Shown: piece after piece, positions 27,507-47,565 of the stretch
Layout of the letters: every line of letters starts with the position of its first letter
How positions within the stretch are numbered: the stretch's first letter is position 1
Assembly: GCA_964454175.1 (NCBI GenBank)
Contig: CAYVSA010000001.1
Span: forward strand, 9,993-73,992
Length of the DNA stretch: 64,000 bases
From: an uncultured Pseudomonadota bacterium
GTDB taxonomy: Bacteria > BMS3Abin14
Reading direction: 5' to 3'
The notes under the pieces: model-generated
What the model was told of the DNA's origin: nothing
The model's input: only the letters and a program-made list of their open reading frames with translations
Database searches by the model: none
Position numbers and translations under genes: made by a program

Positions 27507-27509
27507 GAG

Positions 27510-28016: not shown

Positions 28017-28025
28017 GGTAGGATC

Positions 28026-29683: not shown

Positions 29684-29684
29684 A

Positions 29685-30980
29685 ATGACTAAGATCCTGA
29701 CCCGAAACATAGACCGGCCCAACCCGGCGAATATTGACTCGTACCTCTACAACGAGGGTTACCAGGCGCTTCCCATGGCACTGAATGATATGATGCCTGA
29801 AGATGTGATCGATGAGGTAAAGGCCTCCCGCATCAGGGGCCGCGGCGGTGCCGGGTTCCCGGCAGGCATGAAGTGGGATTTTGCCTCCAGGGACCCAAGG
29901 GGGCCCAAGAACATTATTGCCAACGCCGATGAGGGTGAGCCCGGGACGTTCAAGGACAGGGTGCTCATCGAAAAAGATCCCCACGCTCTCCTGGAGGGCA
30001 TGGCCATAGCGGGCTACGCTGTCGGCGCTGAGTTGGGATTTGTCTACATACGGGGGGAATACCCGGAAGGCGCCAGAATACTTGAAAAGGCCATCGCTGA
30101 TGCAGAGGCCAGGTCGTTCCTTGGCAAAAACATCCTGAACTCGGGGTTCGATTTCACCATAACAGTTCACAGGGGTGCAGGTGCCTACATCTGTGGGGAG
30201 GAAACCGCCCTTATCGAGTCACTGGAGGGCAAGAGAGGCCAATCAAGGATCCGGCCGCCTTTCCCGGTGAACGTCGGCTACATGAATCTGCCAACAGTAG
30301 TTAACAACGTTGAGACCCTTGCTAATATCCCTCAGATCATTCTCAGGGGCGGTGAGTGGTATGCCGGGTTCGGAACCCGGGAGTGTACAGGCACCAAGCT
30401 CTACTCGATAAGCGGTAAGGTGGCCAGGCCCGGGGTATACGAATTGCCCATGGGGACCACACTCAGAGATCTGATATTCGAGCACTGCGGCGGGATGAAG
30501 GACGGCAGGAGCTTCAAGGCCGCATTCCCGGGCGGTGCTTCCAGCGCCTGTCTTGACGAGACCGGGCTCGATGTCCAGCTGGACTTCAACTCCCTCGCGG
30601 CAGCTGGCAGTATGCTGGGTTCAGGGGCCGTCATGGTCCTCGATGATTCGGACGATATGGTCAAGGCTGTTCATGTCCTCATCAAGTTTTTCGAGCACGA
30701 GTCGTGCGGTAAATGCACTCCCTGCAGGGAGGGGCTGTTCTGGATAAGGCAGATATTGGACAGGATCCTCGCAGGGGGAGGGACCGAGAGCGACCTGGAA
30801 CTTCTTCTGAACATAAGCGAAAATATTGCGTCCACTTCATTTTGCGGCCTTGGAGAAGCTTCGGTAAGCGCTCTGGTCAGCACTATTAAAAAGTTCAGGA
30901 GCGAATTTCTGGCTTACATAAACTCTCCTGAGGAAAAAGCCGAAGAAACATCGGCATCGGGGCAGGAGCAGGCATCGTGA
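29685..30980 (+). CDS. nuoF: NADH-quinone oxidoreductase subunit F (FMN/NADH-binding, 4Fe-4S)
   Basis: 'GRGGAGFPAGMKW', 'ESCGKCTPCREG' and 'CGLG' are present. Confidence 0.95.
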   Translation: MTKILTRNIDRPNPANIDSYLYNEGYQALPMALNDMMPEDVIDEVKASRIRGRGGAGFPAGMKWDFASRDPRGPKNIIANADEGEPGTFKDRVLIEKDPHALLEGMAIAGYAVGAELGFVYIRGEYPEGARILEKAIADAEARSFLGKNILNSGFDFTITVHRGAGAYICGEETALIESLEGKRGQSRIRPPFPVNVGYMNLPTVVNNVETLANIPQIILRGGEWYAGFGTRECTGTKLYSISGKVARPGVYELPMGTTLRDLIFEHCGGMKDGRSFKAAFPGGASSACLDETGLDVQLDFNSLAAAGSMLGSGAVMVLDDSDDMVKAVHVLIKFFEHESCGKCTPCREGLFWIRQILDRILAGGGTESDLELLLNISENIASTSFCGLGEASVSALVSTIKKFRSEFLAYINSPEEKAEETSASGQEQAS

Positions 30981-33652
30981 TGGTCAAGATCGAAATTGAC
31001 GGCCGTCAAGTTACTGTTAACGGCCACATCACCGTGCTGGAGGCTGCGAGCAAGCTCGGTATCTACATACCGACCTTCTGCCACCATCCAAGGCTCTCGG
31101 AGCTCGGCGCCTGCAGGATGTGCCTCGTGGAAGTGGAGGGCATGGGTAAACTGCAGACGGCCTGTACGCTTGCAGTTGCAGAGGGAATGGTGATCAGGAC
31201 CAGCACTGACAGGGTGGAAAAATCCCGCCGCGCCATGCTCGAATTCCTGTTGATCAACCATCCACTGGAATGCACTGTGTGCGACGCTTCGGGAGAATGC
31301 ACCCTCCAGGACTTCGCTTTCAAGTTCGGCAGCGCCGAGACGAGGTTCACCGAGAAAAAGAGGGTATTGCGCGACCATATCATAAGCCCCCTCATCGACA
31401 GGAATCTGAACAGGTGCATCCAGTGCAAGCGGTGCGTTAGAATTTGTGACGAAGTTCAGGGCGTCACTGCCCTGGGTATGTCCTACCGCGGGGCAAAGAC
31501 TGTGGTGGGGCCATTTATGGAAAAATCACTGGACTGCGAATACTGCGGCCACTGCATATGGGCCTGCCCGGTGGGTGCCATCACTTCGCGGGTTATGAGA
31601 CACAAGATCCGCACGTGGGAGATGGACAAGGCTGAGGCTATATGCGCGTTCTGCAGCTGCGGCTGCACGCTCACATACAATCACAGGGACAACAGGGTCT
31701 ACAAGGTCACCCACGCTGACGGCAGGGGTGTTAATCAGGGCAGTCTCTGCTCGAGGGGTTATTTCGGATATGATGTGATAAACAGCCCGGAAAGGCTAAC
31801 GACACCACTTGTCCGAAAAGATGGTGAACTGGTTCAGGCAACATGGGAGGAGGCCCTTGAGACCGTTGCATCCGCGCTGGGCAAAGCTGCCGGTGAGGGC
31901 GGTGAAAACGCGGTGGGAGGCATCGTATCAGCTCGGCTTACAAACGAGGAACTATATCTGTTTCAGAAGCTGATGAGATCCTGCCTGTCCAGCAACTGTG
32001 TTGATGTGACCACCGGAGAGTGGAACAGAACAGTCCTTCCAGTACTTGAGGAAAGGCTGGGTGTCTTTGCTGCCACCAACTCCTTAGACGAGGTCACCTA
32101 TGCTGACTCCCTCATCATAATCGGCTGCGACATTACGGTGGAAAACCCCATAACTGGTATAAAGGTGAAGTCGGCCATCCACAGAGGGGGGTCGGTTTCC
32201 GAGATCAACCCCAGGAAAACAGCCCTGTCCCGCATGACAAAGAGGACCATGCTGGTTAGGCCCGGCAACGAACTTACCCTGGTTAAGGGCTTGATCAGGG
32301 CGGTCTTTGACGAGGATCTGATCAGCCAGGAGGACGGGAGCACCTGCAGCAACCTGGATGAACTCAGGCTGTCGGTATTAGACCAGGACCTGAAGTCGAT
32401 CTCCGATGAAACAGGAGTGTCTCAGGAAGACATCACAGGCCTTGCCAGGGAGTTCATGGGGGCGCGCAGGGCGTCCATAATATTCGGTGAGTCTGCTGTC
32501 ATGACTGAGCAGGGTCCGGCTCTTATCAATGCACTTATCGACCTGCTCATGCTCACCGGGAAATTGGGTCAGGAGGGTTTCGGCCTGTATCCCGTAAACG
32601 GTACAGCCAATTTTCAGGGAGCAGTGGACATGGGGGTCGCGCCGGCTCACCTGCCTGGCCACGCCCCCCTTGCTGTAAAGGGCTCGGCTAAAATGCTGGC
32701 CGACGCATGGAAGTCCTCTATCCCGGAAGGCCAGGGTCTTTCGGCTCCACAGATGCTTAAGGCTGCAGTGGAAGGTTCCCTGAAAACGCTCTATGTAGTG
32801 GGTGTAGACATAACCGGTTCTTTCCCCGACAGTTCGATCGCAGAAAAGGCCCTGTCTAACCTGGATTTCCTTGTTGTGCAGGACCTTTTCCTCACGGATA
32901 CAGCAAGGGCGGCAGATGTTGTTCTGCCCGCTGGCAGCCTGGCTGAAAAAAACGGCACCCTTACCAACGTGGAAAGGCGAATCCAGAGAACACGCAGGGC
33001 CATCGACGGGCTGGGGAAGTCCATGCCTGACTGGAGGATCTTTTCTGAACTCGGCGTAGCCCTGGGCCATATGGAAATGAAATATGTGAATGCTGCAGAG
33101 GTGCTGGACGAGATCGCGCAGACCGTGCCCTACTACTCCGGCATCAACCATCGAATACTGGCAGATAATGGGCTCCAGTGGCCCTTCACCCAGGATGACG
33201 CCAGGGAAGTTTACCATGAAGGTTATCTCGGGACCCGCCACCTCCTTTCAGGAGGAGTCGCTGACAGTCTCAGGTCATTTGCAGCCGTGAAATCCTGGGG
33301 CAAAGTGCCAGCGAACGCCGATTATCCCTATACCCTGGTCACAGGAGATCTCCTGTCCCATTCGGGCACCTTCACGCGCTACTCTGAATCGTTGAACAAG
33401 ATAGACTCTGAAGGTGCTGTCGTTATGAATCCGGAAACCGGGGCCAGCCTGGGCATAGATGATGGAGGAAAAGCCAGGGTTGTTTCGGCCCATGGTGAAC
33501 TAACTGTAAAGACCATTTATTCAGAAGACCTCATGGAGGATATTTTCTTCCTTCCGAAACATTTTGCCGACGTACCTGCAGGCAGGTTGATGAGTGCGTC
33601 GGGAAACGGCAGCGAGACTGCTGTTGTGCAGGTACGCGTGGAAAGAGCGTGA
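30977..33652 (+). CDS. nuoG: NADH-quinone oxidoreductase subunit G (long form, Mo-free molybdopterin-oxidoreductase fold)
   Basis: The N-terminal 2Fe-2S 'CHHPRLSELGACRMC', the clusters 'HPLECTVCDASGEC' and 'CIQCKRCVRICDE', and 'CAFCSCGCT' are present. There is no Cys/Sec or His at the FDH active-site position. Confidence 0.9.
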   Translation: MMVKIEIDGRQVTVNGHITVLEAASKLGIYIPTFCHHPRLSELGACRMCLVEVEGMGKLQTACTLAVAEGMVIRTSTDRVEKSRRAMLEFLLINHPLECTVCDASGECTLQDFAFKFGSAETRFTEKKRVLRDHIISPLIDRNLNRCIQCKRCVRICDEVQGVTALGMSYRGAKTVVGPFMEKSLDCEYCGHCIWACPVGAITSRVMRHKIRTWEMDKAEAICAFCSCGCTLTYNHRDNRVYKVTHADGRGVNQGSLCSRGYFGYDVINSPERLTTPLVRKDGELVQATWEEALETVASALGKAAGEGGENAVGGIVSARLTNEELYLFQKLMRSCLSSNCVDVTTGEWNRTVLPVLEERLGVFAATNSLDEVTYADSLIIIGCDITVENPITGIKVKSAIHRGGSVSEINPRKTALSRMTKRTMLVRPGNELTLVKGLIRAVFDEDLISQEDGSTCSNLDELRLSVLDQDLKSISDETGVSQEDITGLAREFMGARRASIIFGESAVMTEQGPALINALIDLLMLTGKLGQEGFGLYPVNGTANFQGAVDMGVAPAHLPGHAPLAVKGSAKMLADAWKSSIPEGQGLSAPQMLKAAVEGSLKTLYVVGVDITGSFPDSSIAEKALSNLDFLVVQDLFLTDTARAADVVLPAGSLAEKNGTLTNVERRIQRTRRAIDGLGKSMPDWRIFSELGVALGHMEMKYVNAAEVLDEIAQTVPYYSGINHRILADNGLQWPFTQDDAREVYHEGYLGTRHLLSGGVADSLRSFAAVKSWGKVPANADYPYTLVTGDLLSHSGTFTRYSESLNKIDSEGAVVMNPETGASLGIDDGGKARVVSAHGELTVKTIYSEDLMEDIFFLPKHFADVPAGRLMSASGNGSETAVVQVRVERA

Positions 33653-33665
33653 GGAGGTATAGACG

Positions 33666-34133
33666 ATGATCGATATCAGCCAGCTCAAGGCAATATCCTC
33701 CCTTGAAGGAGTGTCAGAGGACGCACTGTCGGAATTGGCCAGGGTAATGCAGAAGAGGGTCTACAAAGACTCTGACCCTATTTTTAACGAGAACACCGAA
33801 GGCGGTGACCTTTATCTCGTGGGCGAGGGATCCGTGAAGTTGGAGAAAAGGGCAAAAGAGGGAGAGGCCCAGAGCCTGTCAGTGGTTCGTGCCGGCGATT
33901 TCCTCGGGATAATGACCTTCCTTGTGGGCGGCAAGCACTCTGCAAGCGCCGTGGCCCATGACGACTGCACACTTTACGTCCTGGACAAGGCCTCTTTTGA
34001 TGCTTTCGTTGAAAAGTTCCCGGCCGATGCCAACAGCATCTTCATGATATTTATAGAACGGCTCATCGAATCAGTCAGAAGCATGTATGAGCGGTACATC
34101 GATATGGTCAACTACATGTGGAGGTGGCGGTGA
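33666..34133 (+). CDS. Standalone cyclic nucleotide-binding (CAP effector-like) domain protein
   Basis: 'LYLVGEGSVKLEK...VVRAGDFLGIMTFLVGGKHSASAVAHDDCTLYVLDKASF' is a cNMP-binding beta-barrel. There is no DNA-binding HTH. Its stop overlaps the next start by 16 nt. Confidence 0.6.
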   Translation: MIDISQLKAISSLEGVSEDALSELARVMQKRVYKDSDPIFNENTEGGDLYLVGEGSVKLEKRAKEGEAQSLSVVRAGDFLGIMTFLVGGKHSASAVAHDDCTLYVLDKASFDAFVEKFPADANSIFMIFIERLIESVRSMYERYIDMVNYMWRWR

Positions 34134-34651
34134 ACCCTGAGGAAATTGAGGGATACGAGGAAGAAGAAGAGCTCGATCTTTCTCCCGTCAATGACATACT
34201 GAGTGACCTGGGCGACGCGAAGGGGATGCTGATCCCGCTTCTGCAGGAAGTCCAGAAGGTTTTCGGGTATGTACCTGAAGACGCCGCCAATATGGTTGCC
34301 GATGGGCTGGGCCTTTACCGCAGCCAGGTCTATGGTGTTCTGACATTTTATACGCAGTTCCACCTGAGCCCCAGGGGACGGCATATCATACGCGCATGTT
34401 CCGGGACTGCCTGCCACGTCAGGGGCGGTAAGAGCGTTATTGCCAGGCTGGAGAATCTCCTGGAGATCGAACATGGAGAGACCACAGAAGACGGGCTTGC
34501 TTCCTTTGAAAAAGTTGCCTGCCTCGGGGCGTGCGGTCTCGCCCCGGTGATCATGATAGACAACGATGCCTTCGGACAGGTGGATCCAACAAAGACCGAG
34601 CGGATAATCGAGAACCTGCGCGAGGTGTCCGGCACACAGAAAAGTGATTGA
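34118..34651 (+). CDS. Second NuoE/HoxE/FdsG-like 2Fe-2S subunit
   Basis: The ligands 'CSGTACHVRGG...CLGACGLAPV' are present. It has an acidic N-terminal extension. Confidence 0.85.
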   Translation: MEVAVNPEEIEGYEEEEELDLSPVNDILSDLGDAKGMLIPLLQEVQKVFGYVPEDAANMVADGLGLYRSQVYGVLTFYTQFHLSPRGRHIIRACSGTACHVRGGKSVIARLENLLEIEHGETTEDGLASFEKVACLGACGLAPVIMIDNDAFGQVDPTKTERIIENLREVSGTQKSD

Positions 34652-34681: not shown

Positions 34682-37600
34682 ATGTCTAAAAGTTCAAACG
34701 ATAAACTGATCGTACTGGGAATGGGCACATGCGGCCTGGCTTCCGGCGCGCGTGGAGTCCTCTCCCAGGTTGAAGAGGAACTTACCAGCCTCAAGCTGGA
34801 TGTGCCTATCCTTAAGACCGGCTGCATAGGGATGTGCTACCAGGAGGTTCTCCTGGACGTGTCACTCCCTGGCCGTACCAGGGTCACCTACGCCAAAGTT
34901 CAGCCCGAGATGGTCTCAAAGATCATTGAAAGCCATGTCGTAAAGGGAAAACCCGTAAACGATTACGCCATCGGGCAGATACAGCAGAACGGTGAAAAGG
35001 CGTATAAGGGCATCCCGACTTACGACGAGATGGATTTCTTCGCGAAGCAAAAGCGGATCGTTCTTCGGCGCTGTGGATTCATCGACCCTGACAAGATCGA
35101 GGATTACCTTGACACAGATGGTTACAAGGCCGCGGAAAAGGCCCTGACAACGCTATCGCCGACCGTGATCAGGGAGATCGTCAAGAAGGCTGGCCTGAGG
35201 GGCCGCGGCGGAGGCGGATTCCCCACCGGTCTCAAGTGGGAGTTCTGCGCCACGGCGGCAGGGGAACCGAAGTACCTCATCTGTAACGCGGATGAGGGTG
35301 ATCCGGGCGCCTTTATGGACAGGAGCGTTCTGGAAGGTGACCCGCACGCGCTGCTGGAGGGAATGATCATTGCGGCCTATGCTATCGGCGCAGAATACGG
35401 CTATATTTACTGCCGCGCAGAGTATCCCCTGGCGATCGAGAGACTGGGAACCGCTATTGCCCGGGCCGAGGAAAAAGGATTCCTGGGAAAGAATATATTC
35501 GGTACTGACTTTTCCTTTACCCTCAGGATCAAGGAGGGCGCCGGAGCTTTCGTCTGCGGCGAGGAAACTGCTCTCATGGCGTCCATCGAGGGTAAACGGG
35601 GCATGCCCCGATCGAGACCGCCTTTCCCTGCTCATAAAGGTCTCTGGGGTAAACCTTCCAACATCAACAACGTCGAGACTTTTGCCTGTGTCGCCCCCAT
35701 CATCCTTGGAGGCGCTGACAGTTATTCCTCGATCGGGACCGAAGGCACCAAGGGCACGAAAGTTTTCGCCCTTACCGGAAAGATCAATAACACGGGGCTG
35801 ATCGAGGTCCCCGCCGGTACCCAGCTAAAGGAGATAATTTACGATATCGGGGGCGGTATTGTTGGTGGAGGCAAGTTCAAAGCCGCCCAGCTCGGGGGCC
35901 CTTCAGGAGGCTGCCTGCCCGCCGAGATCGTTGAAACACCCATCGATTACGATTCACTGATCGAAGCCGGAGCCATGATGGGTTCGGGCGGCGTAGTTAT
36001 AATGGACGAGCGGACTTGCATGGTGGACGTTGCCAGGTTCTTTTTGAACTTCACAACTTCCGAGTCCTGCGGGAAATGTGTGCCCTGCCGCCTTGGGACC
36101 AAGACAATGCTCAGCATCCTGGAGCGTATCACCGCTGGCAAAGGTACCATGCAGGACCTTGTCAACCTGGAGGAGATGGGTGCACAGATAAAGACTACTT
36201 CCCTGTGCGGTCTGGGACAGACTGCCCCGAACCCGGTACTTTCCACCATCAGGTACTTCAGACACGAGTACGAGGCCCACATATTAAACAAGAGATGCCC
36301 CGCGGTAGTTTGCAAGGAGGTCATCTCATCACCGTGCCAGCATGTATGCCCTATCGAGACGGATGTTCCAGCATATGTAACCCTTATCGGGCAGGGGAAA
36401 TTCACGGCCGCTCTTGATCTCATCCGCATGACCAATCCCCTCCCGGCTGTCTGCGGCAGGGTCTGCCATCATCCGTGCGAAAGCAAGTGCAGACGCGGAG
36501 AACTGGACAGGCCTATCAGCATCAGAAACCTCAAGAGGGTAGCCTCCGATAACGCTGCCGCCGATGCTGCCACCGGAAAGTACCAGATCAAGTCAAAGAA
36601 GATCTCCGGCAAGGGAAAGAAGGTCGCTATCATCGGGGGCGGGCCTTCCGGTCTCACGGCAGCCCACTTCCTCGCACTCAAGGATTTTTCCCCTGTCATT
36701 TTCGAAAAACAGAGGGTAGCGGGCGGCATGCTTATGCTGGGAATACCTGAGTACCGCCTGCCGAGACAGACACTGAACCATGAGATCAGGGCAATCGAAG
36801 ATATGGGTGTCCAGATCCATTACAGCACCCCGGTGGGCGAGGCTGTCTCCTTCGATCAGCTCAGGATGGATCATGAAGCTGTATTTATTGCATCCGGTGC
36901 CCACGTCGATCTCAAGATGGGCATACCAGGTGAGGATTCCGAAGGGGTGTATGAAAGCCTCAGCTTCCTCAGAAGGGTTAACCTGGGAGAAGAAGTGGCA
37001 CTGGGAAACAAGGTTGCAGTCGTTGGTGGAGGCAATACCGCCATTGACGCATCGAGGATCGCCAGGCGCCTGGGTGCTGACGTGACGATCCTCTACAGGA
37101 GAACGCAAAATGAAATGCCCGCTGATGACATGGAGATCCATGAGGCTCTCCTGGAGGGTATAGAGCTGGAAACGCTCGTGGCCCCGGTGAAGGTACTTTC
37201 GTCCGGCGGGAAAATGACTGGCGCCACCTGTATCAGGATGGAACTTGGCGAGCCTGATTCTTCCGGAAGACGAAGGCCGGTTCCCATAGAGGGGTCCGAG
37301 TTTGACATTCACCTCGACAACCTGATCGTTGCAGTTTCAGGCAAGCCCGACCTTTCATACCTCACCGACAAACACGGGATAGGACTTTCCAGGTGGGATA
37401 CGGTGGATGTTCACCCCTACACGCAGATGACCAACGTGGAAGGCGTGTTTGCCGGGGGCGACGTGGTTACAGGCCCATGGATGGTCATAGATGCAATTGC
37501 AGCCGGCAAGAGGGCGGCAGCACACATGGAGCTGTTCTTAAACGGGGAGGAAGTTGCCCCATTGTACGATGTCACAAAACCCAATATCTCGGGAATAGAG

Positions 37601-37765
37601 GCAATTGAGCTTACGGATGAGGACATGACCCTTACGAGGCCTGACATGCCCACACTCGAAGTTGTCAAGAGGTTAAAGGACTTCGCTGAGGTTGAACTGG
37701 GTTTTTCCAAAGAAGAGGCTATGAAAGAGGCCAGGCGCTGCCTGCGCTGTGACATTTCTGATTAA
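34682..37765 (+). CDS. Fusion protein: thioredoxin-like 2Fe-2S domain + NuoF/HoxF/FdsB-like FMN-NADH domain + GltD-like NAD(P)H/FAD domain
   Basis: The N-terminus 'GMGTCGLASGA...CIGMCYQ' precedes the NuoF core with 'GRGGGGFPTGLKW', 'ESCGKCVPCRLG' and 'CGLG'. After that comes 'CQHVCPIE...CGRVCHHPCESKC', then the Rossmann folds 'VAIIGGGPSGLTAA' and 'VAVVGGGNTAID', and a C-terminal 'RCLRCD'. Length is 1027 aa. Confidence 0.85.
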   Translation: MSKSSNDKLIVLGMGTCGLASGARGVLSQVEEELTSLKLDVPILKTGCIGMCYQEVLLDVSLPGRTRVTYAKVQPEMVSKIIESHVVKGKPVNDYAIGQIQQNGEKAYKGIPTYDEMDFFAKQKRIVLRRCGFIDPDKIEDYLDTDGYKAAEKALTTLSPTVIREIVKKAGLRGRGGGGFPTGLKWEFCATAAGEPKYLICNADEGDPGAFMDRSVLEGDPHALLEGMIIAAYAIGAEYGYIYCRAEYPLAIERLGTAIARAEEKGFLGKNIFGTDFSFTLRIKEGAGAFVCGEETALMASIEGKRGMPRSRPPFPAHKGLWGKPSNINNVETFACVAPIILGGADSYSSIGTEGTKGTKVFALTGKINNTGLIEVPAGTQLKEIIYDIGGGIVGGGKFKAAQLGGPSGGCLPAEIVETPIDYDSLIEAGAMMGSGGVVIMDERTCMVDVARFFLNFTTSESCGKCVPCRLGTKTMLSILERITAGKGTMQDLVNLEEMGAQIKTTSLCGLGQTAPNPVLSTIRYFRHEYEAHILNKRCPAVVCKEVISSPCQHVCPIETDVPAYVTLIGQGKFTAALDLIRMTNPLPAVCGRVCHHPCESKCRRGELDRPISIRNLKRVASDNAAADAATGKYQIKSKKISGKGKKVAIIGGGPSGLTAAHFLALKDFSPVIFEKQRVAGGMLMLGIPEYRLPRQTLNHEIRAIEDMGVQIHYSTPVGEAVSFDQLRMDHEAVFIASGAHVDLKMGIPGEDSEGVYESLSFLRRVNLGEEVALGNKVAVVGGGNTAIDASRIARRLGADVTILYRRTQNEMPADDMEIHEALLEGIELETLVAPVKVLSSGGKMTGATCIRMELGEPDSSGRRRPVPIEGSEFDIHLDNLIVAVSGKPDLSYLTDKHGIGLSRWDTVDVHPYTQMTNVEGVFAGGDVVTGPWMVIDAIAAGKRAAAHMELFLNGEEVAPLYDVTKPNISGIEAIELTDEDMTLTRPDMPTLEVVKRLKDFAEVELGFSKEEAMKEARRCLRCDISD

Positions 37766-37813
37766 CGGGAGCAGCCTGCGTTAAAGCAGTTAATGAGGAG
37801 TAGGGAAAAGAGC

Positions 37814-40597
37814 ATGTTCAACGTCATCGTAGACGGCAGACCGGTAAGCGTACCCAGGGGCTCAACGATCCTGGAGGCAGCCAGGAAACTGGAAATCGAA
37901 ATTCCGACTTTCTGCGACCACAAGCACCTGTTCCCATACGGATCGTGCCGTATGTGTGTTGTTGAGCTTGAGGGCTCAGACAGGCTGTTTGCCTCCTGTG
38001 TTACGCCGGTTACCGACAAGATGGAGATATATACTGACACTGCCAGGGTCAAGGCGGCAAGAGAGACTGTGCTTGAGCTTCTCCTGACCTATCATCCCCT
38101 GGAGTGTCCCGTGTGCCCTCAGTCGGGCCGCTGCATGCTGCAGGACATGACCTTTGAGCACGGGAAGGACAGCGGCAGGTTCGGCTCGGTGGGCGTTGAC
38201 AAGAGAATTGACTACCTCTCGCCTCTAATAGAGATGAACCAGAACAGGTGCATTCTCTGCGGAAGATGCGTGAGAATATGCGATGAGGTTCAGGGCGAGG
38301 GGGAGCTGGATTTTGTGAATCGCGGGTTCCCCACTGTGGTTGAACCGTCCTTTGAAAGGCCGATGGATTGTGAATTCTGCGGCCAGTGTGTACAGGCCTG
38401 CCCCGTGGGCTCGCTGTACAGCAGAATCTACAAGCACACGGCCCCATCGTGGGAACTGACTCCGGTAAGGACTACATGCCCCTTCTGCGGCGTAGGCTGC
38501 ACCCTCAATCTTGAGGTCAAGGGGGATCATATCTATCACGTACTGGGAGTGGATGACGAGGGCTCCAATAACGATGGGAACCTGTGCTGTAAAGGCAGGT
38601 TCGGATACGAATACGTCCATAGCCCAGAGAGAATAATGCAGCCAATGGTGCGCAAGGGCGAAGACCTCGAACCCGCAACGTGGGAAGAGGCCTACGATCG
38701 CATCAAAGAGGGCTTCGGCCGGATTCGTGACGAGCACGGACCGGATGCCCTTGGCGGTATAGCATCCGCAAGGTGCACTAACGAAGAAAATTATCTCTTC
38801 CAGAAGTTCATGAGAGCCGCGATAGGAACAAATAACATTGACTCTGTTGCCAGATTTGGCCACTTCCCCGGGATGGAGGCACTGCTAAAAGCTTTCGGCG
38901 TCGGGGCACCCACCAACTCCCTGGCAGACCTGGCACACACTGATCTGATTTTTGCCATCGATTCCAACATCACTGAAGACGACCATGTGGCGGGGTTGAA
39001 GGTTCTCAAACGGGTTCGCTACGGTGGGGCTCAGCTTATTGTTGCCAATAGCCGCAAGATCAAACTTACAAAATTTTCAGATGCCTGGATGAGGCACAGG
39101 CCCGGTTCCAGTGTGGCACTGTTAAATTCGATGGCGTGGGTTGTTCTGGAGGAGGGGCTGGAAGATGAGGAGTTCTGCCGCAAGAGGGTTGGCGGAATAG
39201 ATGATCTGAGAGCTTTTCTCAAAGACTACGCGCCTGAAAAGACGGCCGCCATTACTGGTGTGGCCGCAGAAGCAGTGCGGGAAGCCGCCAGGGCCATCGC
39301 TTCCTCCGCGAACGTCACCATACTGCTCACCCTCGGCGGTGCGAGCCCATACACCGGGGAAGACACCGTTGCAGCAGCAGCCAACCTCGCTCTCATTACC
39401 GGCAACGTTGGCCGCCAGGGCGCGGGGATAATTCCCTTGTCCGAGTACAACAATGTTCAGGGCTCCATGGATGTGGGGGCCCTCGCCCAGTTCCTGCCCG
39501 GTTACCAGAGCGTTACAGATAGCGGAATAAGATCCTGGTTCGAGGAGACCTGGGGAGTTGACCTGCCCGGGAAGCCTGGGCTTGAAGCTATGGAGATGTT
39601 TGCCGCGGCGAAAGAGGGAAAACTCCGCGGGCTGTACATAATGGGGGAGAACCCGCTCTCTGCATTCCCGGACAGGGAGTCGGTGATCGACGGTCTTTCA
39701 AGCCTGGACTTTCTTGTGGTTCAGGACATGTTCCTGACGCAGACAGCCCTCTTTGCCGACGTGGTATTGCCCACCTCTGGCGGGCCGGAAAAGAACGGTA
39801 CCTTCACCAACACCGATCGCAGGGTCCAGAGGGTGCGAAAGGCGATCAAGTCGCCGGGAGATACCAGGGACGACTGGAGGATCCTTACCGATCTCTCCGC
39901 GGCGATGGGGTATCCTGCCGAATATGCCGATGTTATGGAGATCACGGAAGAGATTGCAAGCGTGGTTCCTTTCTACGCCGGGATAACGCCTGAAAGGCTT
40001 GAGGGAAACGGCCTGCACTGGCCCTGTCCCAGGGAGGATCACCCCGGGACGGATTTTCTTCATGAGAACAGATTCCCTTCAGGGCTTGGCCGCACTCGCG
40101 CAATTGACGGCAGGCTCCAGAAGAAATCCTCTGCGAACTACCCTTTCCTGCTGGTGCCGGGCCTTCTCCTGTACCACTCCGGGACGACCACCACGAGAGC
40201 TAAAGGTCTCAACGAAGTTGCTCCTATCGCCCTTGCGGAGATAAACCCCGAAGACGCCCGGAAGCTGGACGTAAAATCCGGAGACTGGGTAAAGCTCACC
40301 AGTCTGAGAGGTATGGTGGACATAAAAGTTCTCGTCACGGATAAGACTATGGAAGGGACGATCTTCGCACCCACTCACTACCACGGCACACCTGTCAATG
40401 CCCTGCTGACTTACGACCACGTGAACGAGAATGCCGTCACAAGCGTCTCCGTGGAGAGGATCGAGAAGAGATTAGAAGATGAGAGAACAGAGCCGGTGGA
40501 AGGACAGGTAACCAGGCTGAAGAAGATCGTTAAGGATATACAGAAGAAGAGGCAAAGAGCCCACCATGGACAGGGCTCCGACGCCTCGGGAGGATGA
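37814..40597 (+). CDS. Second NuoG-like / degenerate formate-dehydrogenase-alpha-like subunit (FdsA/SfrA-like)
   Basis: The 2Fe-2S 'CDHKHLFPYGSCRMC', 'HPLECPVCPQSGRC', 'CILCGRCVRICDE' and 'CPFCGVGCT' are present. The motif 'VARFGHFPG' aligns with FdhF 'CARV-U-HGPS', with Gly at the Sec/Cys position but Arg and His kept. I place the start at the internal Met 'MFNVIVDG'. Confidence 0.8.
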   Translation: MFNVIVDGRPVSVPRGSTILEAARKLEIEIPTFCDHKHLFPYGSCRMCVVELEGSDRLFASCVTPVTDKMEIYTDTARVKAARETVLELLLTYHPLECPVCPQSGRCMLQDMTFEHGKDSGRFGSVGVDKRIDYLSPLIEMNQNRCILCGRCVRICDEVQGEGELDFVNRGFPTVVEPSFERPMDCEFCGQCVQACPVGSLYSRIYKHTAPSWELTPVRTTCPFCGVGCTLNLEVKGDHIYHVLGVDDEGSNNDGNLCCKGRFGYEYVHSPERIMQPMVRKGEDLEPATWEEAYDRIKEGFGRIRDEHGPDALGGIASARCTNEENYLFQKFMRAAIGTNNIDSVARFGHFPGMEALLKAFGVGAPTNSLADLAHTDLIFAIDSNITEDDHVAGLKVLKRVRYGGAQLIVANSRKIKLTKFSDAWMRHRPGSSVALLNSMAWVVLEEGLEDEEFCRKRVGGIDDLRAFLKDYAPEKTAAITGVAAEAVREAARAIASSANVTILLTLGGASPYTGEDTVAAAANLALITGNVGRQGAGIIPLSEYNNVQGSMDVGALAQFLPGYQSVTDSGIRSWFEETWGVDLPGKPGLEAMEMFAAAKEGKLRGLYIMGENPLSAFPDRESVIDGLSSLDFLVVQDMFLTQTALFADVVLPTSGGPEKNGTFTNTDRRVQRVRKAIKSPGDTRDDWRILTDLSAAMGYPAEYADVMEITEEIASVVPFYAGITPERLEGNGLHWPCPREDHPGTDFLHENRFPSGLGRTRAIDGRLQKKSSANYPFLLVPGLLLYHSGTTTTRAKGLNEVAPIALAEINPEDARKLDVKSGDWVKLTSLRGMVDIKVLVTDKTMEGTIFAPTHYHGTPVNALLTYDHVNENAVTSVSVERIEKRLEDERTEPVEGQVTRLKKIVKDIQKKRQRAHHGQGSDASGG

Positions 40598-40601
40598 TGA
40601 G

Positions 40602-41600
40602 ATGATCTGCCCGGAATGCAATCTGCTCATACCGGAGGACAGCCGGTTCTGCAAGGAGTGCGGCTATAAACTGGAGGCCAGTGTGGAGGAGCGTGATGCT
40701 CTCTCCAACCAGGAAAAGGCGGAGAAGCTTTACCGGGAGGGTATCGTCCAGTACCACCAGGGTCAGTTTGACGAGGCTATTTCACTTTGGGACGAGGCGG
40801 TTGGTCTTATTCCGGACTTTCAAATGACGAACTACTACCGGGGAGTGGCGTACTACGACAAGGGCATGCTGTCTGTTGCCATGGAGTGCTTTAAAAAATC
40901 TGAGGCTTCGCATCCCACCTCCTCTGCTGTCCACTACCGTCTTGGTCTGACTTATTATGCATTGGGGCTTTTAAGCGAATCTGAATACCACTTCAAGAAA
41001 GTGGAGGCACTGATACCCAATACCGCCCAGATCCACTACAGGCTGGGCCTTCTGTACCAGAAAAACGCGGCCCTGGACGAGGCCGTTTCAGAACTGCTGA
41101 AATCACTGGAATTTTCACCTGACTTTGCCAGAGCTTACTTCACACTCGGAGTGACTTATTTCCAGAAGGGAATGCTTGCCGAAGCAGCCGAGGCGCTGCG
41201 CAAAGTTGTGGATATTTCACCGAGATATGTCATGGCCTACTATCACCTGGGCATTGTGCTGTTTCACAAGGGCAACCTTCCCGAAGCCATCAAGGCATTT
41301 GACGAGGCGGTTCTGCTGTCCCCGAACTTCACGGCGGCCTACTACCACCTGGGAGTGTCCCACGCCAGGAAGGGTGCCCACGAAGATGCAGTGTCAAGCT
41401 TCATCAAGGTGAACGGTCTGGACCCCATGGATTCCTCAGCTCTCTACCACCTTGGGAACAGTTATGTGCATCTGGGGATGCTGGACAAGGCTGAAGATAC
41501 ACTGCAGGAGGCACTGAGGCTTAACCCCGACAACTCCGAGGCCTACTTCCTCCTTGAAAAGGTTGGAGAGATCAAGCGCTCCGGGGCGTTGGAGTACTAG
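40602..41600 (+). CDS. Zinc-ribbon + TPR-repeat protein
   Basis: The N-terminal 'CPECN...CKECGY' ribbon is followed by about 8 TPR repeats (AYYxLG/AxxxxxxAL periodicity). I place the start at 'MICPECN', after the upstream stop. Confidence 0.6.
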   Translation: MICPECNLLIPEDSRFCKECGYKLEASVEERDALSNQEKAEKLYREGIVQYHQGQFDEAISLWDEAVGLIPDFQMTNYYRGVAYYDKGMLSVAMECFKKSEASHPTSSAVHYRLGLTYYALGLLSESEYHFKKVEALIPNTAQIHYRLGLLYQKNAALDEAVSELLKSLEFSPDFARAYFTLGVTYFQKGMLAEAAEALRKVVDISPRYVMAYYHLGIVLFHKGNLPEAIKAFDEAVLLSPNFTAAYYHLGVSHARKGAHEDAVSSFIKVNGLDPMDSSALYHLGNSYVHLGMLDKAEDTLQEALRLNPDNSEAYFLLEKVGEIKRSGALEY

Positions 41601-41612
41601 GGGCAAAAAAAT

Positions 41613-42632
41613 ATGGATAACACAACCATGTACATACTTCTTTCTCTTTTCAAGATCGTTCTGGTCCTTGCCATAACGCTGACTTCGGTCCCGATAATGG
41701 TCTGGGTGGAGAGGAAGGTGTCCGGCCACATCCAGAACAGGCACGGACCGCTCTACGTTGGGCCCTTCGGGCTGCTGCAGCCCTTTGCCGACGTTGCCAA
41801 GCTGCTCCTTAAGGAAGACATTATACCCACCGAGGCGGACAAGGTGCTTTACGTTCTGTCGCCGCTCATGTCCTTTGTACCGGCGCTTCTGACTTTTGCG
41901 GTCATACCCATCGGGCCGCACCTGAACATAACAGACATCAACATCGGCATAGTCTACGTTCTGTCCGTTTCATCGCTGGGTGTATACGGGCTTGTTATGG
42001 CAGGGTGGTCGTCCAACAATAAATACGCCCTCCTGGGCGGTCTCAGGTCAGCGGCGCAGATGATAAGCTACGAGATAACCCTGGGGCTGTCCATTATAGG
42101 CGTTCTTATGTACTCCAGGTCACTTTCAATGGTCAGGATCGTGGAGATGCAGGCAGACACGTGGTTCGTCCTGCCCCAGTTCCTGGGATTCATTCTGTTT
42201 CTCGTGGCATCTTTTGCAGAGACCAACAGGCTGCCCTTTGACCTTCCGGAGGCGGAACAGGAGCTCATAGCGGGCTACCACGTCGAGTATTCCAGCCTCA
42301 AGTTCGCCCTGTTCTTCCTTGCCGAGTACGTTGCCATGCTCTCGGCTTCGTGTCTTATCGTCACCCTTTTCTGGGGGGGCTGGCTGCCGATCCCTTACAT
42401 CGGACCGCTGGTGGAGGGCCTCCTGCCGCAGGTTGTAGTAATGTACGTAATGCCTATCCTGTGGTTCCTGGTTAAGGTTGCTTTCTTCATGTTCTTCTTC
42501 GTGTGGGTTCGCTGGACCTTCCCCAGGCTGCGTTACGACCAGCTGATGTCACTCGGCTGGAAAGTGCTGCTTCCCCTGGCGGTATTAAACGTTTTCATCT
42601 CTGGCGTCATCAGGATGTCGGGAGTTATGTAG
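41613..42632 (+). CDS. nuoH: NADH-quinone oxidoreductase subunit H
   Basis: 'VWVERKVSGHIQNRHGP' and 'RLPFDLPEAEQELIAGYHVEYS' are present. Confidence 0.95.
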   Translation: MDNTTMYILLSLFKIVLVLAITLTSVPIMVWVERKVSGHIQNRHGPLYVGPFGLLQPFADVAKLLLKEDIIPTEADKVLYVLSPLMSFVPALLTFAVIPIGPHLNITDINIGIVYVLSVSSLGVYGLVMAGWSSNNKYALLGGLRSAAQMISYEITLGLSIIGVLMYSRSLSMVRIVEMQADTWFVLPQFLGFILFLVASFAETNRLPFDLPEAEQELIAGYHVEYSSLKFALFFLAEYVAMLSASCLIVTLFWGGWLPIPYIGPLVEGLLPQVVVMYVMPILWFLVKVAFFMFFFVWVRWTFPRLRYDQLMSLGWKVLLPLAVLNVFISGVIRMSGVM

Positions 42633-42643
42633 GAGACTGACTA

Positions 42644-43090
42644 TTGGGTTTGATCACGAATATATTCCAGACTGACCTTTTAAAAGGTCTTTCACTGACA
42701 CTCAAGAACTTCTTCGTTCGGCCTGTCACCCTGAGGTACCCGGAAGAGAAGTGGGAGATGCCCGAACGGTTCAGGGGCGCCCAGGTGCTCAAGAGGCACG
42801 AAGATGGAAAAGAACGATGTGTGGGCTGCGGCCTGTGTGGGGAGATCTGTCCTTCCAGCGCTATTACTATTGTCACCTCGGAGGGAGTTGACCACGCAAA
42901 GAAGATAGACTTCTACCAGGTCGATCTTGGCCTTTGCATCTACTGTGGTTTCTGCGAGGAGGTTTGCCCGGTCAACGCAGTTTTCATGGGTAAGGATTAC
43001 GAGCTGTCTGTGACCGATCCCGGCAGGCTCAAAGTTTCCAAAGAACAGATGCTCGAGAAGGGGGACTCCCCCCGATACGATAAACTCTAG
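42644..43090 (+). CDS. nuoI: NADH-quinone oxidoreductase subunit I (2x4Fe-4S)
   Basis: 'CVGCGLCGEICP' and 'CIYCGFCEEVCP' are present. Confidence 0.95.
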   Translation: MGLITNIFQTDLLKGLSLTLKNFFVRPVTLRYPEEKWEMPERFRGAQVLKRHEDGKERCVGCGLCGEICPSSAITIVTSEGVDHAKKIDFYQVDLGLCIYCGFCEEVCPVNAVFMGKDYELSVTDPGRLKVSKEQMLEKGDSPRYDKL

Positions 43091-43097
43091 GGAGTTA

Positions 43098-43613
43098 GTG
43101 ATGGGCCTTCAGGACATATTTTTCTACTATTTTGCCATCGTATCCGTTGTTACTGCTCTGCTGGCGGTCTCTCGATACAATCCTGTCCACTCGGTGCTGT
43201 TCCTGGTTCCCTGCTTTTTCCACATAGCGGGGCTGTTCGTGCTGCTGGGGGCAGAGTTCCTGGCTGCCATCCAGATACTGATCTACACAGGTGCCATCAT
43301 GGTCCTGTATCTGTTTGTCATCGCCCTGCTTAACCTCTCAGGCATCAGGGGACGCAAGATCACTCACCGGCAGAGTTTCCTCGCGGCCATCGCCGTGCTG
43401 GTCCTTGTTGTCCAGCTCGTAGTGCTGGCTATCACAGCGACCTTCCCCGGGCCTTTCGAGAAATTCGCGTCGGCGTCGTTTCTGGGTAACACAGAGGCGG
43501 TGGGGTCGGTGATGTATACAACCTTCCTGTTCCCCTTCGAACTGGCTTCCCTGGTTCTGCTCGTCGCTATTTTCGGGGCGGTTGTCCTTGCCAAGAGGGA
43601 GGCGGGTGAATGA
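43098..43613 (+). CDS. nuoJ: NADH-quinone oxidoreductase subunit J
   Basis: It is a hydrophobic 171-aa protein in the conserved operon position, with '[21 protein letters not shown]'. Confidence 0.85.
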
Positions 43614-43912
43614 TCACACTGACCCACTATCTGGTGCTGGCCGCTATTATTTTCCTGATCGGAGTTCTCGGTGTGCTCATGAGGCGCAACATCATCATAA
43701 TTCTCCTGTCAATTGAACTGATGCTCAACGCCGTCAATATCAACCTTGTGGCCTTCTCACATTACTTTCACAACATGGCTGGCCAGGTTTTCGTGTTTTT
43801 CGTTCTTACCGTTGCCGCTGCAGAAGCTGCGGTGGGATTGGCTATTGTCGTCGCACTCTTCCGCAACCGCGAGACGGTCAACGTGGATGAGATCAACCTG
43901 ATGAAGGGCTAG
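43610..43912 (+). CDS. nuoK: NADH-quinone oxidoreductase subunit K
   Basis: It is a 100-aa 3-TM protein with '[18 protein letters not shown]'. Confidence 0.9.
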
Positions 43913-43923
43913 GAGATCAAACG

Positions 43924-45858
43924 ATGTTAGAAGCTGTAGCCCTGGTTCCTCTTTTTCCGCTGTTGGCGGTGCTGACAAACCTCCTGCTTGGCAGAAGGCT
44001 GTCGAGGGCTGCCGTGGGTGTTCTGGCCTGCGGAGCGCTCGCAGCGTCATTCCTGGCTTCGGTAGTTGCAGTGTTCGGCCTGGCTACGGCAGAGCATGGG
44101 GCCAGGTCTTTTACCTACACGCTCTACGAGTGGATCGGCTCCGGGAGCTTCACCCTGGACCTGGGATTGTTACTGGACCCACTCTCGGCGGTGATGATCC
44201 TGGTGGTGACCGGCGTTGGGTTCTTGATCCACGTCTACAGCATCGGCTACATGCACCACGACGAGGGTGTAAGGAGATATTTCCTCTACCTCAACCTCTT
44301 CGTTTTTGCCATGCTCCTGCTCGTGCTCGGAGACAGCTACCTGCTCATGTTTGTCGGCTGGGAGGGAGTTGGCCTTTGCTCCTACCTGCTCATCGGGTTC
44401 TGGTTTAAAAAAGAGAGTGCAAGCTCAGCCGGCCGCAAGGCCTTCGTGGTTAACAGGGTGGGGGACTTCGGTTTCATCCTTGGCATGCTTCTCATCACCG
44501 TCAAATTCGGTACCCTGTCTTACAATGAGATCTTCGCCAATGCCGGGCACCTGTTCGCCAAGGGTGATCCCACGGTGACAATAATAACGCTCCTGCTCTT
44601 TGTGGGGGCCACAGGGAAGTCCGCCCAGCTTCCCCTGCACGTCTGGCTTCCAGACGCAATGGAGGGCCCGACCCCGGTTTCGGCCCTCATCCATGCTGCA
44701 ACAATGGTTACTGCCGGCGTCTACATGATCTGCCGGAGCCATGTTCTTTACGAACTCGCACCACTGTCCATGACGGTGGTTGCTGTCATAGGTGTCACCA
44801 CTGCCTTCTTTGCCGGGACTATCGCCCTTGTACAGAACGACATCAAGAGGGTGCTTGCCTATTCCACGGTGAGCCAGCTCGGATATATGTTCCTTGCTGC
44901 AGGCGTGGGCGCCTACACTGCCGCTATCTTTCACCTCATGACCCACGCTTTTTTCAAAGCCCTTCTCTTTATGGGTTCGGGCAGCGTTATACACGGCCTG
45001 GACGGAGAACAGGACATTCGTAAAATGGGCGGCTTAAAGGACATTATGCCCGTCACACACAAGACGTTCCTCATTGCTTCCCTCGCCATATCGGGGATCC
45101 CGCCGCTTGCCGGGTTCATGTCAAAGGATGAGATACTCTACTCGGCATTTAACTCCAGTCATGGCGGCGGAGCAGGGTTTATATTGTGGCTGGTGGGAAT
45201 AATCACAGCGCTCATGACCGCTTTTTACATGTTCAGGCTTGTTTACAGGACTTTTTACGGTGAATCGAGGCTGGATCCTGAAGTCGCCAAACACGCTCAC
45301 GAATCACCTCCAGTAATGACAGTGCCGCTTTCGATACTGGCTTTCCTTTCCATAGTGGGTGGTTTCGCGGGTGTACCCATATTCAAAAAGTTAAACATCA
45401 TGCACAACTGGCTGGGCCCGTTGTTCGAGGCAGTAGCGGAACACGGGGCAGATGCAGCCGAGACAGCACACCACCTTTCTACCGAGCTGGGCCTCATGGG
45501 ACTGTCGGTCCTGGTGGCGGCAGGGGGCATAGGTCTTGCGTTCCTCATCATCCTGCGCAAGCCGGAAGTGTCCGAGGAGCTGAGAAACGATTACAGTTTC
45601 CTCTACGACCTGTTCCTTAACAAGTGGTGGGTCGACGAACTGTACGACACGGTAATCATAAAACCCCTCAGGGCAGTATCCCGTTTCTTCTGGACGGATT
45701 TCGACGTCAAGCGGATAGACGGGGTTCTTCACGGGACTGCCGAGGCCGCACAGCGTTCCGGCGGGTTCCTGGCAAGCCTGCAGACGGGTTTTGTGCAGAA
45801 CTACGCACTGGTGATGACTGTCGGCGTAGCCCTGATGCTTGTGCTGGCCTTCTTTTAG
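43924..45858 (+). CDS. nuoL: NADH-quinone oxidoreductase subunit L
   Basis: It is an antiporter-like subunit with 'WLPDAMEGPTPVSALIHAATMVTAGVY' and a long C-terminal amphipathic extension. Confidence 0.95.
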   Translation: MLEAVALVPLFPLLAVLTNLLLGRRLSRAAVGVLACGALAASFLASVVAVFGLATAEHGARSFTYTLYEWIGSGSFTLDLGLLLDPLSAVMILVVTGVGFLIHVYSIGYMHHDEGVRRYFLYLNLFVFAMLLLVLGDSYLLMFVGWEGVGLCSYLLIGFWFKKESASSAGRKAFVVNRVGDFGFILGMLLITVKFGTLSYNEIFANAGHLFAKGDPTVTIITLLLFVGATGKSAQLPLHVWLPDAMEGPTPVSALIHAATMVTAGVYMICRSHVLYELAPLSMTVVAVIGVTTAFFAGTIALVQNDIKRVLAYSTVSQLGYMFLAAGVGAYTAAIFHLMTHAFFKALLFMGSGSVIHGLDGEQDIRKMGGLKDIMPVTHKTFLIASLAISGIPPLAGFMSKDEILYSAFNSSHGGGAGFILWLVGIITALMTAFYMFRLVYRTFYGESRLDPEVAKHAHESPPVMTVPLSILAFLSIVGGFAGVPIFKKLNIMHNWLGPLFEAVAEHGADAAETAHHLSTELGLMGLSVLVAAGGIGLAFLIILRKPEVSEELRNDYSFLYDLFLNKWWVDELYDTVIIKPLRAVSRFFWTDFDVKRIDGVLHGTAEAAQRSGGFLASLQTGFVQNYALVMTVGVALMLVLAFF

Positions 45859-45957
45859 GTAATATTTTTGAGGTCAGGTAATGACGGCTTTGACGAAAAC
45901 ATGACGGCCGGAAAATAACAGACGCACTTAAACGAAAAAAGGACTGAGAAGGAATAA

Positions 45958-47550: not shown

Positions 47551-47565
47551 GGGAGAGCAAGGCTG

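Follow-up and report, generated by a model that had tools for sequence, protein, structure and literature searches.

Gene content of the locus

The DNA analysed here is a 64,000-nucleotide (nt) stretch of contig CAYVSA010000001.1 (positions 9,993 to 73,992, forward strand) from an uncultured Pseudomonadota bacterium, referred to below as the window. It encodes a complex I operon in which all 14 nuo genes are present on one strand with gaps of at most 48 nt. In addition to the canonical electron-input module (N-module) NuoE1-NuoF1-NuoG1, the operon includes a second module of this kind, encoded by three genes that we call E2, F2 and G2 (Table 1). Our subject is G2, whose gene lies upstream of nuoH with one gene, encoding a tetratricopeptide repeat (TPR) protein, in between. 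G2 is a conserved iron-sulfur (Fe-S) protein that has kept the fold of the formate dehydrogenase (FDH) alpha subunit and lost the FDH active site.

The G2 open reading frame (ORF) is unbroken and closes with one terminal stop. It contains zero in-frame TGA codons and thus no candidate selenocysteine (Sec) codon. A longer frame is available from an ATG at 37793, where the program-made ORF begins. The lengths of the homologues (mostly 922-927 amino acids, aa), an identical database protein of 927 aa (P0001) and a GAGGAG Shine-Dalgarno-like stretch upstream favour the ATG at 37814 as the start.

Table 1. Coordinates of the complex I operon, its two N-modules and the sites discussed in G2.
Feature	Position in the window	Strand	Description
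nuoA, nuoB, nuoC, nuoD	26572..29198	+	
Canonical N-module nuoE1-nuoF1-nuoG1	29201..33652	+	
nuoE1	29201-29683	+	
nuoF1	29685-30980	+	
nuoG1	30977-33652	+	
cNMP	33666..34133	+	155-aa cyclic-nucleotide-binding-domain protein, between NuoG1 and E2
E2	34118..34651	+	NuoE/HydC/FdsG-like [2Fe-2S] thioredoxin-like subunit; start codon uncertain
F2	34682..37765	+	1027-aa NuoF::GltD-like fusion
G2 (NuoG')	37814..40597	+	927-aa FDH-alpha-like Fe-S subunit without molybdenum (Mo) active site
G2 residues 1-216	37814..38461	+	NuoG-type N-terminal Fe-S domain; Pfam Fer2_4, NADH-G_4Fe-4S_3, Fer4_Nqo3
G2 Cys222/225/229/258	38477..38590	+	[4Fe-4S] beside the former Mo site (FS0/N7 equivalent)
G2 Gly349-His350	38858..38863	+	codons GGC CAC; positions of the FDH Mo ligand Cys/Sec and adjacent His
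G2 Ser543-Glu544-Tyr545	39440..39448	+	in place of FDH catalytic Arg-Gly-Gln (FdhF 333-335)
TPR	40566..41600	+	344-aa zinc-ribbon and TPR protein, between G2 and nuoH
nuoH, I, J, K, L, M, N	41613..49035	+	

Active-site residues of G2

A first-pass annotation of this DNA had claimed that G2 keeps an FDH-like Arg-x-Gly-His scaffold, in the segment GTNNIDSVARFGHFPG that begins at residue 338, with Gly where the Mo-ligating Sec/Cys belongs. It had also noted that the ORF lacks an in-frame TGA and that the upstream NuoG has neither Cys nor His at this site. All of these observations hold, and the proposed motif register is upheld, with one qualification concerning the Arg. Residues 4-866 of G2 align with FdsA of R. 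capsulatus (6tg9_A; HMMER, E = 8e-181), which places the Mo ligand Cys386 at Gly349 (codon GGC, 38858-38860) and His387 at His350 (CAC). The alignment with E. coli FdhF has the same register, with U140 replaced by G349, H141 retained as H350, and R333, G334 and Q335 replaced by S543, E544 and Y545. (The FdhF sequence used for numbering is identical to PDB 1aa6_A at 715/715 residues.) The motif is not a chance match, because it is located within a full-length homologous alignment. The Arg of Arg-x-Gly-His corresponds to FdhF Arg138 and is not the catalytic one; the catalytic Arg (FdhF R333, FdsA R587) is Ser543 in G2, which reads PLSEYNNVQG where the FDH reads PLRGQNNVQG. NuoG1 of the window has Trp at the ligand position and Asn at the His position.

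These replacements are shared by the G2 clade. Among 26 clustered homologues the ligand position is Gly in 24, Ala in one and Ser in one, and 81% retain the His. Ser543 and Glu544 are invariant (26/26) and Tyr545 occurs in 92%.

Cofactor site, Fe-S clusters and fold

To place G2 between FDHs and NuoGs we used a reference of 92 bona fide FDH alpha subunits, all possessing the Cys-His-Arg triad, in which 185 columns of the Mo domain are at least 95% invariant. The G2 clade keeps 73% of these positions, compared with 55% for the clade of the window NuoG1 and 53% for Nitrospirota NuoG. The losses cluster in motifs that are invariant in FDHs and that we take to be cofactor-binding from general knowledge of enzymes with Mo-bis-pyranopterin guanine dinucleotide (bisPGD). 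In G2, GYNPADSHP (FdhF 172-181; GxNPxxxHP) has become DSNITEDDHV, DPR (FdhF 202-204) has become NSR, and GMGVTQ (FdhF 296-301) has become TLGGAS. The T.R motif of domain IV is gone, along with a 2-residue deletion, and the C-terminal PITKTPEYKYCAVRV segment (P..K..P.YK) is deleted or replaced. MGENP, LP...E..GTFT and NNVQG are kept. The molybdopterin guanine dinucleotide (MGD)-contacting residues are therefore a mixture of lost and retained motifs, as judged from FDH-invariant sequence columns and not from contacts measured in a structure. The pterin domain of FDH type makes up the C-terminal two thirds of G2. On its sequence, G2 cannot work as a formate dehydrogenase and most probably binds no Mo/W-bisPGD.

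It is very improbable, in our judgment, that G2 carries Mo/W-bisPGD without a protein ligand, in the manner of arsenite oxidase, and catalyses another redox reaction. Such a site could draw on His350, the FS0 cluster, the Lys after the fourth Cys of that cluster, NNVQG and the conserved Ser543-Glu544-Tyr545, and the organism makes molybdenum cofactor (Moco), as indicated by a Moco riboswitch upstream of moaA in the window. The rewriting or deletion of GxNPxxxHP, DPR, GMGVTQ, T.R and the C-terminal P..K speaks against it. In addition, the operon has no maturation gene of the FdhD/FdsC/FdsD type, and relatives with dead domains show no pterin density (PMC11829005).

The Fe-S part of the protein is complete. 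The N-terminal domain has one [2Fe-2S], one His/Cys3 [4Fe-4S] and two ferredoxin-type [4Fe-4S] clusters, and is followed by the ligands of the [4Fe-4S] beside the former Mo site, with the conserved Lys after its fourth Cys (FdhF Lys44 equivalent). All 19 of the 19 Fe-S Cys ligands are invariant across G2, other NuoGs and FDHs, and H94 of the His/Cys3 cluster is invariant in its alignment. The ligands expected of a NuoG, namely those of the N-terminal [2Fe-2S], the N5-type His/Cys3, N4 and N7 clusters, are thus all present. By its sequence G2 is an Fe-S wire and scaffold with five intact clusters.

The AlphaFold model of G2 (pLDDT 90.6, pTM 0.90) has FdsA-type FDHs as its best structural matches (6tg9_A, 7vw6_A and 9ktl_A), with a template modelling (TM) score of 0.90. 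The scores are 0.75 for mycobacterial NuoG, 0.72 for E. coli NuoG, 0.68 for Thermus Nqo3 and 0.64-0.65 for StnC/NfnA. In this model the four-domain FDH fold is intact, as are the ligands of the proximal [4Fe-4S]. The NCBIfam Fdh-alpha model TIGR01591 scores G2 at 661.9 bits, just under its cut-off of 666.25. Together with the 433 bits obtained with the NuoG model, the 73% of invariant positions and the TM score of 0.90, this makes G2 more FDH-like than any other NuoG examined, in agreement with the FDH-like character originally assigned to it.

FdsA (R. capsulatus, PDB 6TG9) is therefore a close counterpart in its full-length alignment, fold, five Fe-S clusters and His387 equivalent, and it also works with NuoE- and NuoF-like partner subunits. 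G2 differs from it in the replacement of Cys386 by Gly and of Arg587 by Ser, in the rewritten pterin-domain motifs, in the lack of FdsC/FdsD genes and in being embedded in a nuo operon.

A pseudogene or decaying gene was considered and is ruled out by the intact ORF, the invariant cluster ligands and an identity of 71-72% between species-level relatives. We conclude that G2 is not decaying because its 19 Cys ligands are invariant, its active-site replacements are fixed, its identity between species exceeds that of NuoG1 (64-66%) and its model is confident.

Partner proteins and stand-alone relatives

F2 is a fusion of two parts. Residues ~13-549 form a Bfu-type NuoF with a thioredoxin-like N-terminal domain, a flavin mononucleotide (FMN)/NADH site and the N3 cluster. 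Residues 550-1025 form a GltD/NfnB-like domain with 2x[4Fe-4S], flavin adenine dinucleotide (FAD) and NADPH sites, and match the GltD-like part of NfnA and StnC. The core scores 739 bits against Bfu B subunits (7t2r_B), 404 against Nqo1 and 352-394 against FdsB. Residues 13-549 match 7t2r_B, 9n5u_B (NfnB) and 8oh5_B (StnB) over near-full length (719-739 bits; 700-719 bits for StnB and NfnB), and 9bov_B is also among the Bfu matches, which take in the thioredoxin-like domain. In the tree, F2 falls inside the BfuB/F::GltD clade (bootstrap 1.00), separate from NuoF1 and Nitrospira NuoF. Beyond the motif RCPAVVCK, F2 continues with a GltD-type Fer4_20 two-cluster domain and then FAD/NADPH motifs. 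NuoF::GltD fusions of ~1010-1030 aa are abundant. E2 carries the Cys motifs of a BfuC-type C1 [2Fe-2S] cluster.

We examined the loci encoding the FDH alpha subunits nearest to G2. Among them the trio NuoE - NuoF::GltD - FdhA recurs in the same order without nuo genes (e.g. L010, L028, L087 and L088, all uncharacterised), with NuoF::GltD fusions that are 50-54% identical to F2. The residues at the active site follow the gene context. In 10/10 trio loci without nuo genes, Cys or an in-frame TGA (Sec) stands at the ligand position of the alpha subunit and the catalytic Arg is present, whereas in 6/6 trio loci in nuo context Gly and Ser occupy these positions, as in G2. Cys-less proteins of the G2 type occurred in nuo context only. 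SfrAB, the NADPH-dependent oxidoreductase of Geobacter, and the Moorella NADP-FDH are analogues of the stand-alone trios.

In L087 (10379-13168), and also in L011, L028 and L033, an in-frame TGA falls exactly at the Mo-ligand position (HCARL*H) of the FdhA encoded beside NuoF::GltD, and the FdhAs of these four loci are therefore selenocysteine FDHs. The gene caller's FdhA product in L087 has no Pfam match on record.

Origin of G2

Trees were built from 55 sequences with checked gene context by neighbour-joining (NJ) with 200 bootstraps, all tree building being by distance methods. All Cys-less proteins, comprising G2, NuoG1, Nitrospirota NuoG and the "SYG" group, form one clan (bootstrap 1.00), within which G2 joins NuoG1 and Nitrospirota NuoG (0.95). 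Because proteins that lose a function evolve fast and may attract each other in trees, the clan was retested in three ways. It was recovered at 0.99-1.00 with the Mo domain alone, with gamma correction, and with the Fe-S domain alone (214 columns), a domain that is functional and under the same constraint in every group. The larger trees were not used for deep placement: the 177-taxon NJ tree of 50%-identity representatives was star-like, with internal branches of 0.006-0.03, and in the 78-taxon bootstrap every deep node had <55% support.

The first-pass annotation had derived G2 directly from the alpha subunit of an NAD(P)-dependent FDH, or from an SfrA-like protein, through a loss of Mo catalysis independent of that in NuoG and more recent. 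The part of this proposal that describes an FDH-like, catalytically dead protein stands. The phylogeny places G2 with the Cys-less NuoGs and not with FDHs, and we regard an independent loss as unlikely. What recommends it is the Mo domain, which is 44-46% identical to FDHs and 35% to NuoG1 and Nitrospirota NuoG and has the 73% retention of FDH-invariant positions described above. Real Cys/Sec FdhA genes, too, stand beside partners of the E2 and F2 type in an identical gene order, and the closest relative identified for F2, at L028, is associated with an FDH (weak support). Besides the clan itself, several shared changes contradict it. Following G2 residue 786, all four Cys-less groups carry a 2-residue deletion that is absent from the FDHs. 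The derived residues G356A, G544E, D412N and T386I/V are shared by different Cys-less groups, and G2 and Nitrospirota NuoG have the motif DS.AR[FY]G[HQ] in common. Moreover, identity in the Fe-S domain is higher between G2 and the SYG group (51%) or NuoG1 (48%) than between G2 and FDHs (41-45%). Closeness to FDHs in the Mo domain only is as expected of a slowly degenerating relic.

The Arg-x-Gly-His/Gln motif is also found in ordinary complex I. Nitrospirota NuoG reads DSGARYG[QH], and two Nitrospira proteins with this motif (P0186 and P0187) are the sole NuoG of ordinary nuoA-N operons, with a plain 437-aa NuoF adjoining. The Cys-His-Arg triad is complete in just 46 of 194 diverse relatives, a set made up of 50%-identity representatives of an exhaustive search and of sampled clades; about three quarters lack it. 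From these data, the loss of the Mo ligand appears to have been inherited from an ancestor common to G2 and the canonical long-form NuoGs.

With the long-form NuoG/Nqo3/75-kDa subunit of Nitrospira, G2 thus shares the domain order, the Fe-S ligands, the Mo-less FDH-like C-terminal part, the clan and deletion, and a gene position directly upstream of nuoH if the TPR gene is set aside. It differs in being the second NuoG of its operon, in having a Bfu-type NuoF::GltD instead of a plain NuoF as partner, in keeping 73% of the FDH-invariant residues (53-55% in other NuoGs) and in scoring under the curated NuoG threshold. The FDH/Bfu type of E2 and F2 contrasts with the NuoG type of G2, which leaves two readings: a mosaic module, or Bfu-type partners formerly present throughout the long-NuoG clan.

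Conservation of the second N-module

The relatives of the window are metagenome-assembled genomes (MAGs) labelled "bacterium", "Proteobacteria" or "Deltaproteobacteria"; the source habitats are a vent chimney, a mud volcano and a cold seep. The gene order nuoA-D, E1, F1, G1, cNMP, E2, F2::GltD, G2, TPR, nuoH-N was found in six MAG loci (L002-L005, L007 and L008, the last spanning the stretch from G1 to G2 only), with G2 identities of 71-84%. Overall, a second N-module lies between nuoG1 and nuoH in at least seven lineages and never at the operon end. The cNMP and zinc-ribbon/TPR genes are kept in every dual-module operon found.

A more distant dual-module operon, L089 (JBFOMZ010000224.1, 142-20877), also includes the cNMP and TPR genes, and its G2 is 53% identical to that of the window. 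Its second NuoF is an ordinary BfuB of 595 aa with a C-terminal 2x[4Fe-4S] ferredoxin domain and no GltD. The domain swap between this protein and F2 is located directly after the shared motif RCPAxxCK. The dual-module operon is therefore older than the acquisition of the NADPH domain.

In L082/L083 a complete nuoA-N operon has no N-module other than the trio NuoE - NuoF::GltD - Cys-less G (SYG group), and docking on the quinone module must there fall to such a G. In Nitrospira, NuoG1-like proteins are the sole NuoG as well. Both G1 and G2 consequently have close relatives that act as the sole NuoG of a complex I, and chiefly for this reason we see the window operon as carrying two alternative input modules for a single membrane and quinone core.

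L082/L083 have two further features. DRTGG and HATPase_c genes, which are typical companions of HydABC-type operons, are found between nuoD and nuoE (3044-4907). A separate 127-aa ORF resembles the thioredoxin-like N-terminal domain of F2 (40% identity).

A truncated form of the module was observed in L001/L006 (CP070682.1, MAG bin676; 8066-17102). It starts within F2 (residues 413-1025 remain), continues through G2, TPR and nuoHIJK, and breaks off in nuoL after 324 residues. The genes on either side, for chemotaxis and transporters, are unrelated, and a NuoG1 orthologue (P0143) is encoded elsewhere on the chromosome. This is either a rearrangement or a MAG assembly join.

Possible roles of the second module

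The reading we favour, at somewhat better than even confidence, is that G2 is the NuoG-position (BfuA-type) Fe-S subunit of the second electron-input module, E2 - F2::GltD - G2, and that this module is an alternative NAD(P)H:quinone head of complex I. Electrons would be exchanged with the G2 cluster chain, via the F2/E2 clusters, at two sites of F2: by NADH at the FMN and by NADPH at the FAD in the fused GltD-like domain. G2 would dock on the NuoB/C/D/I module in the place of NuoG1 and hand electrons to NuoI and then to quinone. By analogy with the trio that is the sole N-module in L082/L083, G2 would belong to the peripheral arm. In reverse mode, driven by the proton motive force, electrons could pass from quinol to NAD(P)+. 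The operon would then yield two complex I isoforms that differ in whether they carry the plain NADH module (E1F1G1) or the NAD(P)H module.

Several points weigh against this reading. With a complete canonical NuoEFG already encoded in the operon, complex I could function without a second docking module. The association of G2 with NuoB/C/D/I is deduced from gene context and relatives. The NCBIfam NuoG model TIGR01973 scores G2 at 433.4 bits, under its cut-off of 470.05 (NuoG1, 496.1). The absence of the pterin cofactor is judged from sequence motifs, and arsenite oxidase demonstrates that a Mo-bisPGD site without a protein ligand is possible. Finally, F2 lacks the C-terminal 2x[4Fe-4S] ferredoxin domain (B3/B4) of BfuB, and Bfu-type mechanisms are therefore not simply transferable to it. 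In characterised Bfu enzymes this domain is essential for bifurcation and ferredoxin binding (PMC11829005).

The closest published counterpart is the predicted "Nuo-Bfu" complex, in which BfuABC replaces NuoEFG in nuo clusters of Geobacter, Deferribacteres, Planctomycetes and Nitrospirae (Schut et al. 2022, PMC9304861). As in the window, a BfuC/B/A-like trio is surrounded by nuo genes, and electrons are proposed to pass from it to the quinone module. The window trio, in contrast, is additional to NuoEFG, and the B3/B4 domain of BfuB is replaced by a GltD-like NADPH/FAD domain. L089 combines the dual arrangement with an ordinary BfuB. We found no later use of the term "Nuo-Bfu" in the open-access papers searched. 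In the same literature we found neither a nuo operon described as encoding NuoEFG together with a Bfu-type trio nor a report of NuoF::GltD in complex I, which is not proof of novelty. Nitrospina NUO-2, considered as a possible counterpart, was rejected, as the paper describes a NuoF2 without FMN site and scattered genes. Overall, the electron-input module in this complex I operon is an unusual arrangement of known parts.

The same building blocks occur in StnABC and NfnABC (Nfn-Bfu; PDB 8OH5, 9BOV), soluble electron-bifurcating transhydrogenases built from a NuoE-like subunit, BfuB, a GltD-like NADPH domain and a NuoG-like subunit whose FDH-like domain is inactive and pterin-free (PMC10482914, PMC7483475, PMC11829005). 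Catalytically inactive FDH-like domains are described in both StnC and NfnA (PMC10482914, PMC11829005). The main alternative, conceivable if rather doubtful, is that E2-F2::GltD-G2 is a soluble, self-contained enzyme akin to these or to SfrAB. It would work as an NADH/NADPH transhydrogenase, possibly ferredoxin-linked, co-transcribed with complex I for pyridine-nucleotide balance, and G2 would be a structural or oligomerisation subunit. The closest characterised relatives of F2 are indeed soluble Bfu enzymes, and the inactive FDH-like domain of StnC mediates tetramer formation (PMC10482914). The E - F::GltD - FdhA trio stands alone as a soluble unit elsewhere, and the presence of a full NuoEFG in the operon also fits a separate enzyme. 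The genomic evidence points the other way, as the trio of L082/L083 is the sole N-module of a complete nuo operon, the module of at least seven lineages always lies inside the operon between nuoG1 and nuoH, and the G2-type Cys-less proteins among the loci examined are confined to nuo context. G2 itself groups with NuoGs and is only distantly related to StnC and NfnA (288-309 bits; TM 0.64-0.65). The window module also differs from StnABC/NfnABC in that its GltD domain is fused to the B subunit and not inserted in the A subunit, in the lack of B3/B4 in F2 and in its location in a complex I operon.

If G2 is the NuoG-position subunit of an alternative head, a further step can be proposed, tentatively. 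The operon may encode two interchangeable complex I heads, a plain NADH head (NuoE1F1G1) and a Bfu-derived head (E2-F2::GltD-G2) in which an NADPH/FAD domain has taken the place of the ferredoxin-binding domain. The second form could be a proton-pumping NADPH:quinone oxidoreductase or, reversed, an NADP+ reductase driven by the proton motive force, and the choice of head might be set by the flanking cyclic-nucleotide-binding and zinc-ribbon/TPR proteins.

Other features of the window

The TPR protein starts with a zinc-ribbon motif, CPEC...CKEC, and its gene overlaps the end of G2 by 32 nt. No signal peptide was found in this protein, which is probably cytoplasmic and perhaps has a role as an assembly factor or adaptor. 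A promoter/terminator consensus scan of 26000-45000 gave no signal above shuffled expectation.

The Moco riboswitch (Rfam RF01055, 63.5 bits, gathering score 36) was identified at 4006-4123 on the minus strand, directly upstream of moaA (2957-~4000, minus strand; TIGR02666, 367.7 bits). Moco synthesis and its regulation are therefore present in the organism despite the loss of the Mo site in G2. At 8412-10870 (plus strand) there is a second, separate GltD-like Fe-S flavoprotein of 647 aa (Fer4_20 and Pyr_redox_2; PRK12771-like), preceded by a UPF0047 protein; no NuoG-like or FDH-like gene adjoins this region. At 18678-22967 (minus strand) we detected a Rex-type redox-sensing regulator (Put_DNA-bind_N and CoA_binding) beside NrfH-like and DmsE-like multihaem cytochromes c and a cytochrome b. 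These genes hint at an NADH-sensing regulator next to an extracellular or quinol-linked electron-transfer module.

Significance

A NuoG-type motif without Mo ligand is in itself ordinary, being the rule among the relatives. What distinguishes G2 is that it is the least-degenerated Mo-free NuoG among those examined and that its partners are of the kind that accompanies living Cys/Sec FDHs. Its homologues carry the JGI label "formate dehydrogenase alpha subunit", and G2 lies 4 bits under the FDH threshold; metabolic reconstructions of these MAGs will therefore wrongly infer formate oxidation.

The loci form a graded series: an active FDH with NuoE/NuoF::GltD, then a nuo operon whose sole N-module is such a trio, and finally a trio that accompanies NuoEFG as second N-module. 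This series bears on the long-standing idea that a soluble NAD-linked FDH or hydrogenase diaphorase gave rise to the N-module of complex I. Should the second module dock, this would be a complex I able to handle NADPH directly. If true, this would be relevant for reverse electron transport and for biosynthetic reducing power in organisms of vents, seeps and mud.

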